DNA from: a virus | Taxonomy: Duplodnaviria; Caudoviricetes | Length of the DNA: 64,000 nt | Reading direction: 5' to 3' (one strand) | IMG/VR virus record: IMGVR_UViG_3300021979_000004 | Coordinates: 1 to 64,000 of that record | Shown: piece by piece, positions 3,267-39,705 of the stretch | Position numbering within the stretch: the first letter of the stretch is position 1 | Layout: the number at the start of each line of letters is the position of its first letter | Made by a program: the position numbers and the translations under genes | The notes under the pieces: model-generated | Databases searched by the model: none | What the model was told of the DNA's origin: nothing | What the model saw: only the letters and a program-made list of their open reading frames with translations

Positions 3267-3349
3267 TGGCACCCAAGGTAGGATTCGAACCTACGTTTTC
3301 AACTCCAACTACGCTTACTTGGTTCGTAGCCAAGCACGGTTACTTGGGT
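3267..3349 (-). tRNA. Atypical tRNA-Arg(ACG) lacking a D-arm
   Basis: Acceptor ACCCAAG/CTTGGGT+GCCA, anticodon arm CTTGG-CTACGAA-CCAAG, canonical T-arm; only 8 nt where the D-arm should be. Confidence 0.65.
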
Positions 3350-4355: not shown

Positions 4356-4368
4356 TTTTTAAAGAACA
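4356..4368 (-). promoter_or_regulatory. boxA-like antitermination element
   Basis: TGTTCTTTAAAAA on the minus strand between tRNA-Phe and tRNA-Ala; matches rrn boxA (TGCTCTTTAACA). Confidence 0.6.
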
Positions 4369-25026: not shown

Positions 25027-25323
25027 GCCGTAGTAGCTCAGTTGGTAGAGCAACTGACTTGAAGATACGAGCCTCAATTTGGAAACAATTTGAGTGGAAG
25101 GAATCAAATTCAGGGAAACCTTAACACGTAATGGTGATGGCAATCCTGAGCCAAGCCTAGAAGTTCTAGGAAGGTGCAGAGACTAGACGGTTCCTACCTA
25201 AGCATTCTTAAAAGGAATGTATGGTAAAGGTATAGTCCAGACCACAAATGTGAAGACAGTAGCGAAAGCTATAGTGGTAAGGTAATCAGTAGGTCGGGGG
25301 TTCAAATCCCTCCTGCGGCTCCA
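25027..25323 (+). tRNA. tRNA-Thr(TGT), intron-split: exon 1 25027-25060, exon 2 25282-25323
   Basis: Joined exons give ACTGA-CT-TGT-AA-TCAGT anticodon arm, GCCGTAG/CTGCGGC acceptor and CCA. Confidence 0.92.
25061..25281 (+). ncRNA. Group I self-splicing intron (IC3, trnL-UAA type), 221 nt, no ORF
   Basis: AATTCAGGGAAACC, GGCAATCCTGAGCCAAG, GGTGCAGAGACTAGACGG, ATAGTCC, CAGTAGCGAAAGCT; exon ends in U with U:G in P1 (CTT/GAG); intron ends in G. Confidence 0.92.
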
Positions 25324-30853: not shown

Positions 30854-33800
30854 ATGAGATACGATATGAACGCAGTATACGGTCACACAATTAGTGGACA
30901 AATTGCTAAGTTCCCAGACGATGAAAAGCGTGGTTTTATGATCTATGGTAGCACACAAGATATTCTGGATTCTATGGATGATATGTATGCTTATCTTCAA
31001 GAACGTTATCCTGAGTGTAAAGTGATTCGTGAAGAAGATGATGGTACACCGAGAGACATGCCTGTTATTGACACGGCCAACCTTACTGAAACACAAATGA
31101 TTGAAATGTTGAATGCTGTCCAAGCGTTCTATATCGATAACAAGTTTACAGTAGGACCGGTGGAAGTTAAAACTAACCGTCAGTGGCTTTTTGAAGCATT
31201 TGGTATAACAGATTTCCCAGAATATACCGAAGACGATGAAATTTATGTTGAAGACGCAGAGACAGAGTTGGTGGATTACGAAAAATGAAAATGATTCGCA
31301 CTAATCGTACACATACCTGTTGGGGCTACAGACTTTATGTAGTCCCTGAAACTTGGAAGGAAAAGGTATACTTGTATCGTAAAGGTTATCGTGTGTGTAA
31401 AATAGGTATGCTCACAAAAGGTCATTTTTACGTTCACGAGAAACATAGAAATCCTTAATTATTTTTACCATAAGGGTTGTAATTTCAATTTTAATGCTCT
31501 ATAATGGTTACATAATCGAGATAAAGGGGATTACCTATGAAACTGATGATCGTAACCGACTACGTTGAAAACTACGGCGACACCGATACCCCACGTTGGA
31601 AGCAGAAGTTTGGCTCTGTGTATGTTGTTAACAACATCGAGCTTGACAGTGAGTGTAAGGTTGTTGACATCGAGGAAATGAAAGCTCTGGTTGAGCTTGA
31701 CAACCCTGTGGCTCGTGAAACTGTTTCTTATTGGGAAGTTCTGTCTGATGGCGAAAAACTGGATATTGAAGACTATGAGCTTCCTATGGTCATCTACCAC
31801 GAGAAGGTAGACGGTCGTTGGACTGGCTATAAAGTCAACGACACACGCATGGCTGATACTTGGCTGCGTGAGGGAATTCTTATCATGGAAGAGTTCTGGG
31901 ATTGTAAGCCAGATGGCACACGCGAAAACTACCGTCAGCGTTTCACTATGGATGACGGTACAATTCTGAATTCTCAGGATGAGCTTTCAGAATGGTATAA
32001 TGTAGTTTATACCAAGCGTGTAGCTCCTGACGTGCCTGTTCTTTAACAGGCATTTTTATAAAGGTGTTTTATGTTCTTTAGAAATAAATCAAAAGAAAGT
32101 TCCAAGAAGACTATTGATAAAAGTCTTCCTAGTGCAGAAAGTGCTAGGAATAGAACATTTGCTGTTCGACGTAAAGAGAGTGATGACAAAGATCGTTATC
32201 GTCGTGGTGGAATGACAGTAAAAGAAGCTATCCAATATCGAATAGAATTGGGTGAGTTTGACTGCACGGTTGACGTATCCGGTAAAGATTATGATGAACT
32301 TAAACATCTTTGTTGGGCAAATGGTTACAAAATTCGTATTGGTGTCATGGCGGGTACTGGTGATGATGCTCAAATAACAGCTAGAATTTCATGGTGAATT
32401 TATGGATAAGTCTTTGATATTTTTTGGGTTTAATGTTTATGGTGAAACTAAACCTATGAATCTAGAAAAAGCGTCTATGTATATCAAAGCAATTATTGAT
32501 GATATTGTGAAAGATGCTAAAGCTAAAACCGAACAGCTTTCTTTTTCTGAATATGGTCATATACATCCAATTGAATTTGAAGTACATAAAGCATCAGGGA
32601 AGAAAAATCTTATAACTATTGGAACCTTTGCTTTTGTTTGTAATGATATCGAAAGCTTCAGAAAACTCAAGCTTATGCTCCCAGAAAAAAATATTAAAAA
32701 GGTGAAGATTGATGCTAACTATTTTGAGGTTGTGCATCATAATAGTTTGAATATGGCTAGGTTGCCAGAAAGGAATAATCATATTGTTCGTATACGGTAT
32801 GAAAGCTCTTTGAAGACTAATGATAAAAGATTTAATACATTTTATAACTGTGAGAATAATAAAGTGGGTAATGGATTTGCAACAGTTCTTTAAAAGAGTA
32901 TTGACATCGCCTTTGTAGTTCTGTAAAATTGTTAAAATAGATACTGTGCGCGGACCCATGTTTGGGCAGGCTGGATGAACTTCTGGCCTTGACGGTTTAA
33001 TTCCGAGGCCGTGTATGACATTTGTGAGTGGATTGGGCAAGGCAGTATCTACCAAACTATTATGGGGATTCTATGGCTACTAAACAGAAAGTACTCAAAG
33101 AACTTGAAAAGAAAGCTCCCGGTGCAACTTTGGTCATCATTGACGAAGGACTTAGCTTTCAGGCTCAGCTAGACGCTCCTGAAGGGCATCATTGGGAACT
33201 TGAGACTCATACTATGTGTGCACCCGAATGGTACACAGGACCGCGCTCAGAGTATTGGGACATGATTCTAGAAATGATCGATGAACTCCCACGTGCGGTT
33301 CCCTGCTCAGAAGAACATCCATGTGAAGGTATTACTGAATTTGGAGCATGTGAATTCTGGGATGAAGAAGATCGTGAACTGTTTCAACTCCATTGAGGAT
33401 TGCTGATGATTAAAAAAGCGTTTTTGTTACTGATATTCGTTCCGATTGGACTTTTCCTTATCGGGTATGTAAAATGGAAAAAATACAAAATTAAGAGGAA
33501 TTGATATGCAAGCGTTTCTGTCTTTTATGCTCATTATGAGTCTTTACTGTAGTGTATTTGTAATTGGTGGACCAATGCTTATGCTTGAAGCATGTTCAGA
33601 TGGAGAAATGTTCGGACGTGGTTGTGAAATGGCAGATAACTATGGTGAAGCATATATGGTAGCAGCCTTTGCTTGGATCATGGGTTCTATTCCGCTTGGA
33701 ATCTTTGTGATGTTTATCTATACACTTAGTCGTTCTATTTATGAAGCATATCAAAAACGTAAAGTGGAAAAGGAAATTGAGAAAAATAAACCTAAGTATT

Positions 33801-34942: not shown

Positions 34943-35004
34943 TTGACGAACCATAAATAACTCATTATAATGGTTCCATAAATTAAGGAAACGTTCTTTA
35001 AAAA
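34943..35004 (+). promoter_or_regulatory. Promoter with nested CATAAATA followed by boxA
   Basis: TTGACG-aaccataaataactcat-TATAAT; CGTTCTTTAAAAA at 34992-35004. Confidence 0.75.
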
Positions 35005-35368: not shown

Positions 35369-35377
35369 TTTTATTAT

Positions 35378-35452
35378 CGCGGGGTAGAGCAGTCTGGTAA
35401 GCTCGTCTGGCTCATAACCAGAAGGTCGGGGGTTCAAATCCCTCTCCCGCAA
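35378..35452 (+). tRNA. Initiator-type tRNA-fMet(CAT)
   Basis: C1:A72 mismatch, loop CT-CAT-AA; anticodon stem TCTGG/CCAGA has only two of the three usual G-C pairs; no encoded CCA. Confidence 0.85.
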
Positions 35453-35465
35453 ATTCAGGGGTAAT

Positions 35466-35951
35466 ATGAAAATAACAACATTAGAAGATATAAAGTCTAG
35501 ATTACTAGGCAAGATTGAAATCAATAATGAGTGTTGGGAGTGGCAAGGTGCTACAAACAATCACGGTTATGGCACTATGAAGATCACAAACCTACAGGGT
35601 AGTGATGAAGGAAGAAAAACATGTTATGTTCACAGAATGTCATACCTGTGTCATAATAATGAATTGCCAAGTGATCAGCTTGTTTGTCATACTTGCGACA
35701 ATCCTATTTGTATTAACCCCGACCACTTATTTTTAGGATCAAATCAGGATAATATGAATGATATGAAATCTAAAAATAGGCAGGGAACTAATAACACCAT
35801 TCATTATGGGAATAACCATGCTGGAAAGAAAGTTATAGCTGATGGAATTGAATATAAATCATTTTCAGAAGCTGGACGTGCATTAGGTGTTTCTTGTACA
35901 ATGATTCGTAAAAGAGTCAAGAATGGTGTAAAAGGCTATAAAAAGCTTTAA
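35466..35951 (+). mobile_element. HNH homing endonuclease with NUMOD-like C-terminus
   Basis: CWEWQG..GYG..HR..CHTCDNP.C.NPDHL...N..D. Confidence 0.9.
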
Positions 35952-36302: not shown

Positions 36303-36365
36303 TTGACACTGAATTCGAATGACCTTATAATGGTTACAGAAGTTGAGGAAAACGCTCTTTAAAAA
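36303..36365 (+). promoter_or_regulatory. Consensus sigma70 promoter plus boxA driving the ncRNA array
   Basis: TTGACA-17-TATAAT (36303-36331); CGCTCTTTAAAAA (36353-36365). Confidence 0.8.
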
Positions 36366-36369
36366 CTGA

Positions 36370-37594
36370 ATAGCTTTGGTACTCGCTTGACCGTCCCGAT
36401 AGTAAGAGCAAAGGTCATAAATCATTGCCACCAAAGCTTTTTGCCCATAGGCTTACTCACCTATGTTACAGGCGCGGTAACCAATCCGAAGAGTAAGAGT
36501 TACGAGAGTATATAGGCATGGTCCTTTTTCATCATGTGAAATTCCTATCAAGTAAGGGTCATGACCTATATACTCTCAACGACCGATGGCACCCTTGGAC
36601 TAGCTCATCCATGTTACAGGTGCGGTATCCAGCCCGAAGAGCTACCGAATTTTCTAACCAAGGTTTGGCGTAATATGGCCTTGGTTCTAAAAACCACAAG
36701 TGTCTGTTTTTTCCTCCTTTGTCGGACACGCTACCAGTGGGTACAGGGGATAGAGGTTCACCCTGAAGTGGGTATACAGGACAAATATTTAGTTTCTGTC
36801 TCCGGTCCTGTATACCTAAACTTATTTGCCGAAAACCTGTAGACGGTTCTTTGCAGTTGTCCGTCAATAACCGCAGGGTAAGGGGTATTGTGGTTCACCC
36901 CAAATGTTTTGCCTAATGGGTTGTAAATAATATAATTACAATACATTAAGAAGTAGAGGTGAGGTTATGTATACAGGTCATTCCTGTGTGTAGGTTGAAC
37001 TCCTGCTAACCAACACCCTCTGCGACAAGTTTATAACCATGGGAATAAGACCTCTGCAAGCAAGTCCATCTGTGAAATCTCGTAGGAGAAGCGACGGTGA
37101 GGAACCTACGGAAGTGAGTAACATACATGGTTAAAGTTTTGTGCATATGGGTTTGAATTGTTTTTAAAACTTTAAATATCTAATCTAATTTCTCCATTAG
37201 GTTTCCATATGCACAATTTATTATGTACCTGACCGATCCTCTTGGTGCCCTCCGTCTCAGCATAACCAATGGTCAGGTACAGTTTTTATGCGTCGTAGGA
37301 CTGCCGGAATTGGACTACAGTCATCAATGGTCTTCTTCTGGGGTGTCTGAACGTTTATAGTGATTAGAGATAGATGACTCAATACTCAACTCATTATAAA
37401 CCTCCCTGTTCGACTCGGGGGCGACGAGCCAACTTCAAGTCGGGTAGCTCAGATGAATAGAGCGCGTCACTGATAAGGACGAGGCCGGTAGTCACTACCC
37501 CCGAATTAAAAAATTATGGTGCTGTTGCTTGCTGATCACAAGTAGGGAATATACTGATCTAGACAGGAGTGGGTTCGAATCCCATCCAGTGCCA
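36370..37594 (+). ncRNA. Array of structured non-coding RNAs (about 1.25 kb)
   Basis: Many 9-13-bp perfect helices, a duplicated motif and several T-loop arms; no credible ORF. Confidence 0.65.
37441..37505 (+). pseudogene. Degenerate tRNA-Ile(GAT)
   Basis: D-arm AGCTCAGATGAATAGAGC and loop CT-GAT-AA intact; T-arm lost. Confidence 0.5.
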
Positions 37595-39252: not shown

Positions 39253-39705
39253 ATGATAGATATAAAAGAATATATAAAATTACCAAAGGAAGAAAGACAA
39301 ACACATTTAAAATTGGAAGAACCTTGTTGTGAACGTGGTGGAAAGTCAACACAACACAAGGGCGTACTAGCGCAGTATTTGAATACAACTATACCGTCTG
39401 GTAGAATATTGCTATGTCATGCTTGTAACAATGCAGATTGTAGTAACCCCAATCATTTATATTTTGGAACAGATAGGGAGAATATAATAGAAGACGGTAA
39501 GAAATTTGGTACATTTAGATCGCCGTGGGAAAGTATGGTAGCAAAACATGGTTATGAAAAAGCGTGTCAAATGCAGAGTAGAAAAAGTGATCATTCTAAG
39601 GCTGGAAAAGCAAACACAAAACCTAAGTCAGAAGAACACAAGAGAAAAATTTCAGAAGCTGTTAAAAGAAAACATGCTGAAAGAATTAAGAATAACCCGA
39701 AGTGA
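39253..39705 (+). mobile_element. HNH homing endonuclease with NUMOD3-like tail
   Basis: LLCHACNN..CSNP.HLYFGT..EN; KPKSEEHKRKISEA; own TATAAATA at 39230-39237; stop codon lies inside the next tRNA. Confidence 0.88.

Follow-up and report, generated by a model that had tools for sequence, protein, structure and literature searches.

Ever since T4, stable RNAs whose function is unknown have been seen in phage tRNA clusters, and a ∼1.25-kb stretch (36370-37594) in the tRNA-rich region of an uncultured jumbo phage raises the question of what such DNA produces when it encodes neither a credible protein nor a canonical tRNA. The window analyzed here comprises the initial 64,000 nt of a 218-kb virus contig from IMG/VR (IMGVR_UViG_3300021979_000004; G+C content ∼35%, estimated completeness 73%), whose 18 tRNA genes are all located in its first 44 kb. 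The stretch, referred to below with its promoter and leader as the cassette, has tRNA-Met (35377-35453) upstream and tRNA-Leu (at 39696) downstream and is thus a neighbor of phage tRNA genes. It is probably a dedicated stable-RNA operon built of independent modules whose products may serve as decoys or mimics, and most likely yields a chain of ∼15 small folded RNAs (Table 1), although the decoy or mimic function is a best guess held with low confidence.

The stretch is non-coding and much more structured than chance. Every open reading frame (ORF) of at least 40 aa within it has a codon log-ratio between −0.02 and 0.11, compared with 0.31 for the training genes and 0.295 for a flanking 197-aa ORF, and none has a match in Pfam or PHROGs, which agrees with the original prediction that no credible ORF is present. 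The six long helices listed in that prediction were all recovered, as inverted repeats I11 (36369-36380/36430-36441), I4 (13 bp), I8, I9 (12 bp), I10 (12 bp), and I13 (11 bp). The interval 36370-37290 contains four perfect hairpins whose stems reach at least 11 bp and whose loops do not exceed 60 nt, whereas 300 dinucleotide shuffles contain 0.01 on average; for stems of at least 9 bp the numbers are six and 0.19. The folding z-score (z) is −5.5 for a 953-nt stretch and lies between −4 and −6 for several of the single units. A dispersed repeat of the REP or MITE type was ruled out, as no further copies of the cassette hairpins occur in the 218-kb genome. The plus strand is indicated by the promoter, by the tRNA-like units, and by G-U pairs in unit 1 (see below) and in the 36504-36577 hairpin, where the pairs of the extension, read from the sequence, work on that strand only.

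Known RNA families account for little of this structure. The Rfam 15 covariance models were applied at their gathering scores and then at E ≤ 10 in sub-searches of 2.8 kb, 477 nt, and 541 nt; the sole family match at gathering score in the cassette is a weak tRNA (37438-37507), and no GOLLD, ROOL, ribozyme, riboswitch, or antitoxin family, abiF included, is matched there even at E ≤ 10. The other matches at that threshold pair plain hairpins with microRNA-precursor models and are due to chance. The collection of homologues with covariation analysis, which had been proposed together with this search, succeeded for unit 1, where three helices are supported, and yielded no homologues of the whole stretch or of the part between 36440 and 37290.

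Immediately upstream of the stretch, the promoter and the boxA-type element claimed in the original prediction are both present, each as a full match to its consensus (the boxA consensus is that of Baniulyte et al., PMC5725501). Exact boxA matches are over-represented in the window (six, against 0.65 expected), a number reached in none of 100 shuffles. The promoter, spacing, and leader of the cassette align with those before tRNA-Tyr at 34943-35004, whose leader contains a second boxA (34993-35003), and both boxA sequences lie ∼22 nt past a −10 element. Because this promoter-leader arrangement recurs at tRNA-Tyr, the cassette appears to be tied to the stable-RNA transcription units of the phage. 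The four other exact boxA matches are at 32038 (+), 32885 (+), 4357 (−), and 48790 (−); that at 32038 sits within a hairpin loop and that at 4357 is inside a minus-strand tRNA array, directly past tRNA-Phe. As in the boxA leaders of rrn operons and lambda nut sites, where boxA is the NusB/NusE site, an exact boxA is found here in the leader of an untranslated structured transcript, but no boxB or boxC partner was identified, binding of NusB/NusE is a prediction, and the phage element would serve small RNAs rather than rRNA. Within the cassette, a weaker promoter-like site (36909-36936) may start a second transcript, in which case the cassette would comprise two transcription units. The last hairpin of module Y2, upstream of this site, is followed by a short U-rich run.

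The first unit past the promoter leader, unit 1, belongs to an RNA family, designated motif A, that extends well beyond this phage. A 57-nt match of ∼90% identity was detected by blastn in the Rhodococcus phages Francesca and Dorin, with a tRNA-Lys gene on either side of it, and further matches were found in the Sulfitobacter phages pCB2047-A, pCB2047-C, and NYA-2014a; the unit is unannotated in each of these genomes. Additional members were obtained from IMG/VR by pattern scans and from metagenomes by a 22-mer scan, in which all 32 contigs recovered (32/32) proved to be true members. Two of these contigs, L203 and L226, are ∼690 kb long. The covariance model R1 gives 45 matches, 37 of them distinct, among phage and metagenome contigs, with a single copy in the present genome. 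When the genomes of 185,579 prokaryote species were searched with the core 16-mer, 49 matches resulted, all of which lack both the flanking core and the closing stem; at the level of this 16-mer search motif A appears to be confined to viral and metagenome contigs. No Rfam family is matched by unit 1 even when 36370-36444 is searched by itself at E ≤ 10, and its core sequence was not found in the literature searched.

Covariation supports the three predicted helices of unit 1, P1, P2, and P3, all of which are present in the window copy. In the 14-sequence seed, P1 shows compensatory change in eight of its nine pairs and 98% of its cells are paired, a result that none of 500 shuffles reaches. 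P2 contains one covarying pair (G-C to A-U in 4/32 sequences), as does P3 (A-U to G-C in 3/32 sequences, with one exception), the latter being a four-pair pseudoknot formed between the 3′ part of the P2 loop and the 3′ joining region. Approximately 45 core positions are near-constant, partly because members were retrieved by exact patterns, although positions outside the search patterns are also nearly invariant. A divergent member scoring 42 bits (L221:1015-1078), with GGCC/GGCC in P2 and a 3′ joining region enlarged by an inserted G+C-rich hairpin, suggests that the diversity of motif A is wider than exact-pattern scans recover.

A same-strand tRNA is found within 300 nt of unit 1 in 22 of 39 instances and is absent in 17. 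P1 often begins 0-10 nt past the 3′ end of one tRNA and stops 1-17 nt short of the next, and processing of these tRNAs would therefore free unit 1 as a stem-closed RNA. The window copy is not in such a direct tRNA-tRNA spacer; the upstream tRNA is 917 nt away and module X follows. In one phage lineage (L139:1660-1790), P1 is extended to ∼20 bp and takes up the entire spacer between two tRNA-Lys genes, reaching from the CCA end of the first up to where the second begins at its 5′ end. Very large phages may carry two or three copies in their tRNA regions, as observed in a 270-kb contig (L012, L138, and L198) and in an 84-kb contig (L003 and L010). In a single metagenome contig, an RtcB RNA ligase gene begins 56 nt past unit 1 (L213:64-1257, minus strand). 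A role as a cis-regulator of one gene family was rejected, as the downstream genes are unrelated and RtcB occurs only once.

Comparison with described RNAs places unit 1 in no established class. A survey of structured-RNA candidates from IMG/VR (the 'DNAVirus_X' set; PMC10690425) includes 8,495 unnamed candidates, and unit 1, with its ∼65 nt, is of the covarying intergenic phage type listed there; unit 1 may already be among these candidates, and no motif with its context is described in the text of the survey. Theta ribozymes, which are minimal HDV-like ribozymes, adjoin tRNAs in gut phages (PMC10879173), and unit 1 is similarly small, pseudoknotted, and often situated a few nucleotides from the 3′ end of a phage tRNA. 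Unlike the HDV-like ribozymes, however, its 5′ and 3′ ends pair in P1, and its covarying helices form a closing stem with an H-type pseudoknot rather than a nested double pseudoknot; no Rfam ribozyme is matched and the helices do not map onto one another, so that membership of the HDV-like/theta group was rejected. Mimicry of rRNA was also considered and rejected. BLAST comparison of the cassette with the Escherichia coli rrn operon gives only chance-level matches (E values of 2.5-49), unit 1 scores inside the shuffle range in Smith-Waterman comparisons with 16S, 23S, and 5S rRNA, and model R1 finds no match in that operon (16S, 23S, 5S, and operon tRNAs). Suspected resemblances of unit 1 to 23S rRNA near position 440 or to 5S loop E, and of module X to the 16S 530 loop, were not supported.

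Downstream of unit 1, the middle part of the cassette (36440-37290) is laid out as X1, hairpin, X2, hairpin, Y1, hairpin, Y2, a Y-shaped unit, a weakly structured unit, and two long hairpins. Module X is present in exactly two copies in the 218-kb genome according to model R2. Its helix alpha surrounds the 5′ strand of helix beta, an arrangement that could represent an H-type pseudoknot or, equally, a pair of alternative folds. Between the copies there are two compensatory changes in alpha and two in beta (none in slid controls), and between the copies of module Y there are three, with slid controls for X and Y giving 0-1; both modules thus appear, from these comparisons, to retain their helices through compensatory change. 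RNA-level selection on the middle part is likely, though not proven, the support being these two-copy comparisons together with folding energy. An anti-Shine-Dalgarno function for the CCUCC-containing loop at 36700-36729 was considered and rejected, since the duplicate module Y2 lacks CCUCC and the feature is therefore not conserved. The unit at 37025-37142 is the least certain part of the cassette because its z-score is only −0.67. The last hairpin of the middle part resembles a terminator and was missed by the terminator scan because its loop exceeds 8 nt. A perfect 8-nt complement exists between the leader just past boxA (36361-36368) and the trailer of this last hairpin (37280-37287); pairing of the two might enclose the non-tRNA part in a leader-trailer helix, although the complement is A/U-rich and near chance expectation.

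The 3′ end of the cassette consists of three tRNA-shaped units. Two of these, 37290-37431 and 37518-37594, had been named in the original prediction and do possess an acceptor stem and a T-arm, the latter in canonical 5-bp/7-nt form, but a third unit lying between them (37438-37507) had been overlooked. Neither of the two is called by ARAGORN at default settings or by the Rfam tRNA model; the best Rfam match of 37518-37594 is a chance-level one to the tRNA-like mascRNA (E = 8). ARAGORN calls tRNA-like units, including 37518-37594, only at relaxed thresholds, and these calls are mutually inconsistent. The overlooked unit is the only one accepted by the Rfam tRNA model, without a default ARAGORN call, and its alignment with the tRNA-Ile of the same genome and that of another phage indicates that the D-stem and anticodon loop are kept, whereas the GG of the D-loop is lost and the T-loop is reduced to 3 nt, so that both partners of the elbow contact are gone. 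The cloverleaf, D-loop GG, and 7-nt T-loop elbow that define a canonical tRNA are not found together in any of the tRNA-like units. The last three units are tRNA derivatives or look-alikes in which features required for decoding are missing, and decoding by them is probably impossible.

This end of the cassette parallels the T4 tRNA operon, in which non-coding stable RNAs are co-transcribed with tRNA-type genes and oversized tRNA-shaped RNAs lie distally in the order tRNA-Arg, rnaD, rnaC; the cassette, known here from its sequence, appears to be organized likewise. The 142-nt unit has the same predicted four-way layout as the 139-nt rnaC (species 1), with an acceptor stem, two long arms, and a canonical T-arm, but its CCA is encoded and that of rnaC is not. 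No sequence homology to rnaC or rnaD (species 2 RNA, 119 nt) is detectable beyond the T-arm, MAFFT giving a mean column identity of 49% and eight invariant columns over four sequences. Unlike the T4 operon, the cassette has zero canonical tRNAs, ∼12 additional non-tRNA modules, and its own promoter with a boxA.

Table 1. Predicted elements of the cassette, in order along the window, with the evidence for each (z, folding z-score; MFE, minimum free energy; R1-R3, covariance models; I5-I13, inverted repeats).
Element	Position	Strand	Evidence
Sigma-70-type promoter, TTGACA-17 nt-TATAAT	36303-36331	+	12/12 consensus positions; predicted start near 36338
boxA-type leader element	36354-36364	+	exact match to GYTCTTTAANA
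Unit 1, motif A member of ∼65 nt: P1 closing stem, P2 GACC/GGUC, P3 pseudoknot	36370-36444	+	R1, 93.8 bits, E = 4e-21
Module X, copy 1: interlocked helices alpha and beta, conserved 25-nt loop	36440-36503	+	78-83% identity to copy 2
Long hairpin, 13 perfect bp and ∼10 further pairs	36504-36577	+	MFE −31.3 kcal/mol, z = −6.05
Module X, copy 2	36588-36653	+	R2, 87.7 bits
Hairpin, core AACCAAGG / CCTTGGTT	36650-36692	+	I8; z = −2.6
Module Y, copy 1: three hairpins, the first with a U-rich loop holding CCUCC	36694-36770	+	R3, 92 bits; aligns with copy 2
Hairpin, 12-14 bp stem	36769-36818	+	I9; z = −4.9
Module Y, copy 2, first loop without CCUCC	36834-36908	+	R3, 88.4 bits
A+T-rich hairpin overlapping weaker promoter-like site TTGCCT-16-TATAAT	36909-36952 (site 36909-36936)	+	10/12 consensus positions; fold
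72-nt Y-shaped unit: 9-bp closing stem, 5-bp inner stem, two hairpins	36953-37024	+	MFE −28.5 kcal/mol, z = −3.98
Weakly structured unit closed by imperfect 17-nt inverted repeat	37025-37142	+	I5, 76% complementary; z = −0.67
Hairpin, 12 perfect bp, branched A+T-rich top	37139-37216	+	I10; z = −4.6
Terminator-like hairpin, 11 perfect bp and inner stem, then five U	37224-37288	+	I13; z = −4.2; U run read from sequence
142-nt tRNA-shaped RNA	37290-37431	+	fold: 6-bp acceptor stem plus G:A first pair, two long arms, canonical T-arm, encoded G-CCA
tRNA-Ile(GAU)-derived RNA	37438-37507	+	Rfam tRNA, 32.5 bits (cut-off 29)
tRNA-shaped RNA: acceptor stem, canonical T-arm, aberrant D and anticodon regions, no encoded CCA	37518-37594	+	fold

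A sequence of events can be proposed from what is established for rrn operons and for the processing of the T4 tRNA operon. Host sigma-70 RNA polymerase would initiate at the consensus promoter, and the leader boxA would recruit NusB/NusE, rendering the polymerase resistant to termination as on rRNA operons. The antiterminated polymerase could then read through the ∼1.25 kb, which are untranslated and rich in hairpins, and past the terminator-like hairpin, after which host enzymes would cleave the transcript into ∼15 small RNAs, with RNase P and 3′-end enzymes acting at the tRNA-shaped units and RNase III or RNase E at the long hairpins. The products would act neither as messengers nor as one large machine; they may instead be stable decoys or mimics, and their targets would be the proteins by which tRNA and other RNAs of translation are handled, be these host enzymes, tRNA-directed defense nucleases, or phage factors. 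This guess is prompted by the tRNA-like shapes, by the tRNA-array habitat of unit 1, and by its core, which is extremely conserved even among phages whose hosts are unrelated.

Several observations weigh against a stable-RNA operon of this kind. The ∼850 nt of the middle part have no homologue in any search, whether by blastn against phages, by two pattern scans of viral contigs (a single match, in apparent G+C-rich coding sequence), or by scanning 49 phage loci and the genome itself with models R2 and R3, which found nothing outside the cassette. The two-copy covariation score is reached by 27 of 500 shuffles for module X and 73 of 500 for module Y, the statistics being weak because there are only two copies of each. 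Strand makes little difference to how well the perfect palindromes fold, and for this reason folding energy alone cannot separate RNA-level from DNA-level selection. Searches of the 73%-complete contig for candidate partner proteins yielded no RtcB, no Ro60/TROVE, and no member of the CCA-adding enzyme family. Finally, every processing site, the role of boxA as an antitermination site with its Nus dependence, and the decoy function itself are predictions or guesses.

Among the alternatives, a polycistronic precursor of small RNAs and a single ornate RNA had both been raised in the original prediction. In the latter, the hairpins and modules would be domains of one multi-domain RNA of ∼0.9-1.2 kb forming a single particle like GOLLD (RF01998) or ROOL (RF03087), which are frequent in phage tRNA-rich regions (PMC12286853 and its reference 29). 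The cassette shares with these the character of a long non-coding structured RNA in such a region, the z-score over the whole stretch and the long-range pairs in its MFE structure are in keeping with a single molecule, and the 8-nt leader-trailer complement could close it. However, neither model matches at E ≤ 10, the long-range helices found no comparative support, the A/U-rich complement is near chance, and the cassette is made of separable modules, so that a single RNA is considered quite unlikely. The modular operon is favored over it because unit 1 occurs alone elsewhere, with tRNAs on its flanks and a closing stem of its own, because X and Y are self-contained duplicates, and because the end of the cassette repeats the T4 pattern; the same three features fit the polycistronic precursor, the transcription of which is deduced here from promoter and leader motifs. 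It is likewise quite improbable that much of the stretch lacks an RNA function and represents recombination debris, with decayed tRNAs, duplicated fragments, and palindromes acting at the DNA level as nuclease targets or in replication or recombination. Homing-endonuclease ORFs lie on either side (35466-35951 and, a weaker one, 39253-39705), 37438-37507 does resemble a decayed tRNA-Ile, and the middle 850 nt are an orphan whose palindromes are strand-neutral, but a perfect promoter and boxA leader, as at a real tRNA operon, are aimed into the stretch, the X and Y copies differ mostly by compensatory pairs, unit 1 is strongly selected in dozens of phages, G-U pairs function on the plus strand only, and the hairpins are not dispersed repeats.

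A narrower function for the operon, as a counter-defense arsenal of anti-defense RNAs mimicking antitoxin or guide RNAs (of type III toxin-antitoxin systems, tRNA-cleaving nucleases, or CRISPR repeats), is decidedly improbable. The repeated pseudoknotted modules do look like processed antitoxin RNA arrays, and the elbow-less tRNA-Ile keeps its anticodon loop, as a decoy for an anticodon nuclease would need to. Type III antitoxin arrays consist of short near-identical tandem repeats beside the gene of a toxin endoribonuclease, whereas the repeats of the cassette are 137-148 nt apart and 78-80% identical, and of its neighbor ORFs one encodes an HNH endonuclease and the other a protein without known function; assignment as a ToxI-like array was therefore rejected. 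No Rfam antitoxin family, abiF included, was matched in the searches described above, and unit 1 would not be copying a host RNA of the same sequence because none of the 49 prokaryote 16-mer matches is a true copy. The possibility that the stretch encodes one or more small proteins is very remote. ORFs of 93 aa (36561-36842) and, on the opposite strand, 102 aa are present, but their codon log-ratio is ∼0.04 compared with ∼0.3 in real genes, they match nothing in Pfam or PHROGs, and they cross covarying helices.

The surroundings of the cassette contain mobile elements and further candidates for non-coding RNA. The ORF at 35466-35951 (+), between tRNA-Met and the cassette promoter, encodes an HNH/His-Me finger homing endonuclease, the weaker ORF at 39253-39705 (+) is situated just upstream of tRNA-Leu and overlaps its start, and a group I catalytic intron lies at 25051-25254 (+; Rfam 65.3 bits, cut-off 50). 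In the minus-strand tRNA array, a match to the tRNA model at 3270-3349 (−; 41.5 bits), not called by ARAGORN, adjoins tRNA-Ser, and the spacers of this array, 300-400 nt in length, may contain additional non-coding RNAs. No close relative of the contig was found in the phage collection. One IMG/VR contig encodes a protein with 93% aa identity to a protein of the window and stops short of the cassette region, and comparison of synteny through the neighboring proteins was uninformative for the cassette.

In view of the separate promoter, the host-type antitermination signal, and the absence of both canonical tRNAs and ORFs, the RNAs themselves must, on the proposed reading as a stable-RNA operon, be the product, and the locus thus offers an unusually clean case in which the function of the stable RNAs carried in phage tRNA clusters might be addressed. 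A more ambitious version, which is unlikely, would make the operon a purpose-built battery of RNA mimics, with unit 1 a new RNA class, the elbow-less tRNA-Ile and the rnaC-like RNA decoys for tRNA-directed host defenses, and host rRNA antitermination borrowed for mass production. Unit 1 would then act as a ribozyme, as a nuclease-resistant cap, or as a decoy with high affinity for some universally conserved protein that handles tRNAs or ribosomes, a role that would explain why its ∼45-nt core is near-constant among phages of actinobacteria, alphaproteobacteria, and low-G+C hosts. With this near-invariant core and three supported helices, motif A is a good candidate family, and its presence in the cultured phages Francesca and Dorin of Rhodococcus and pCB2047-A and pCB2047-C of Sulfitobacter makes it tractable for biochemistry and structure determination. 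If the boxA works, the cassette would represent a phage that uses rRNA-type antitermination for the production of small RNAs without a lambda N-like protein.

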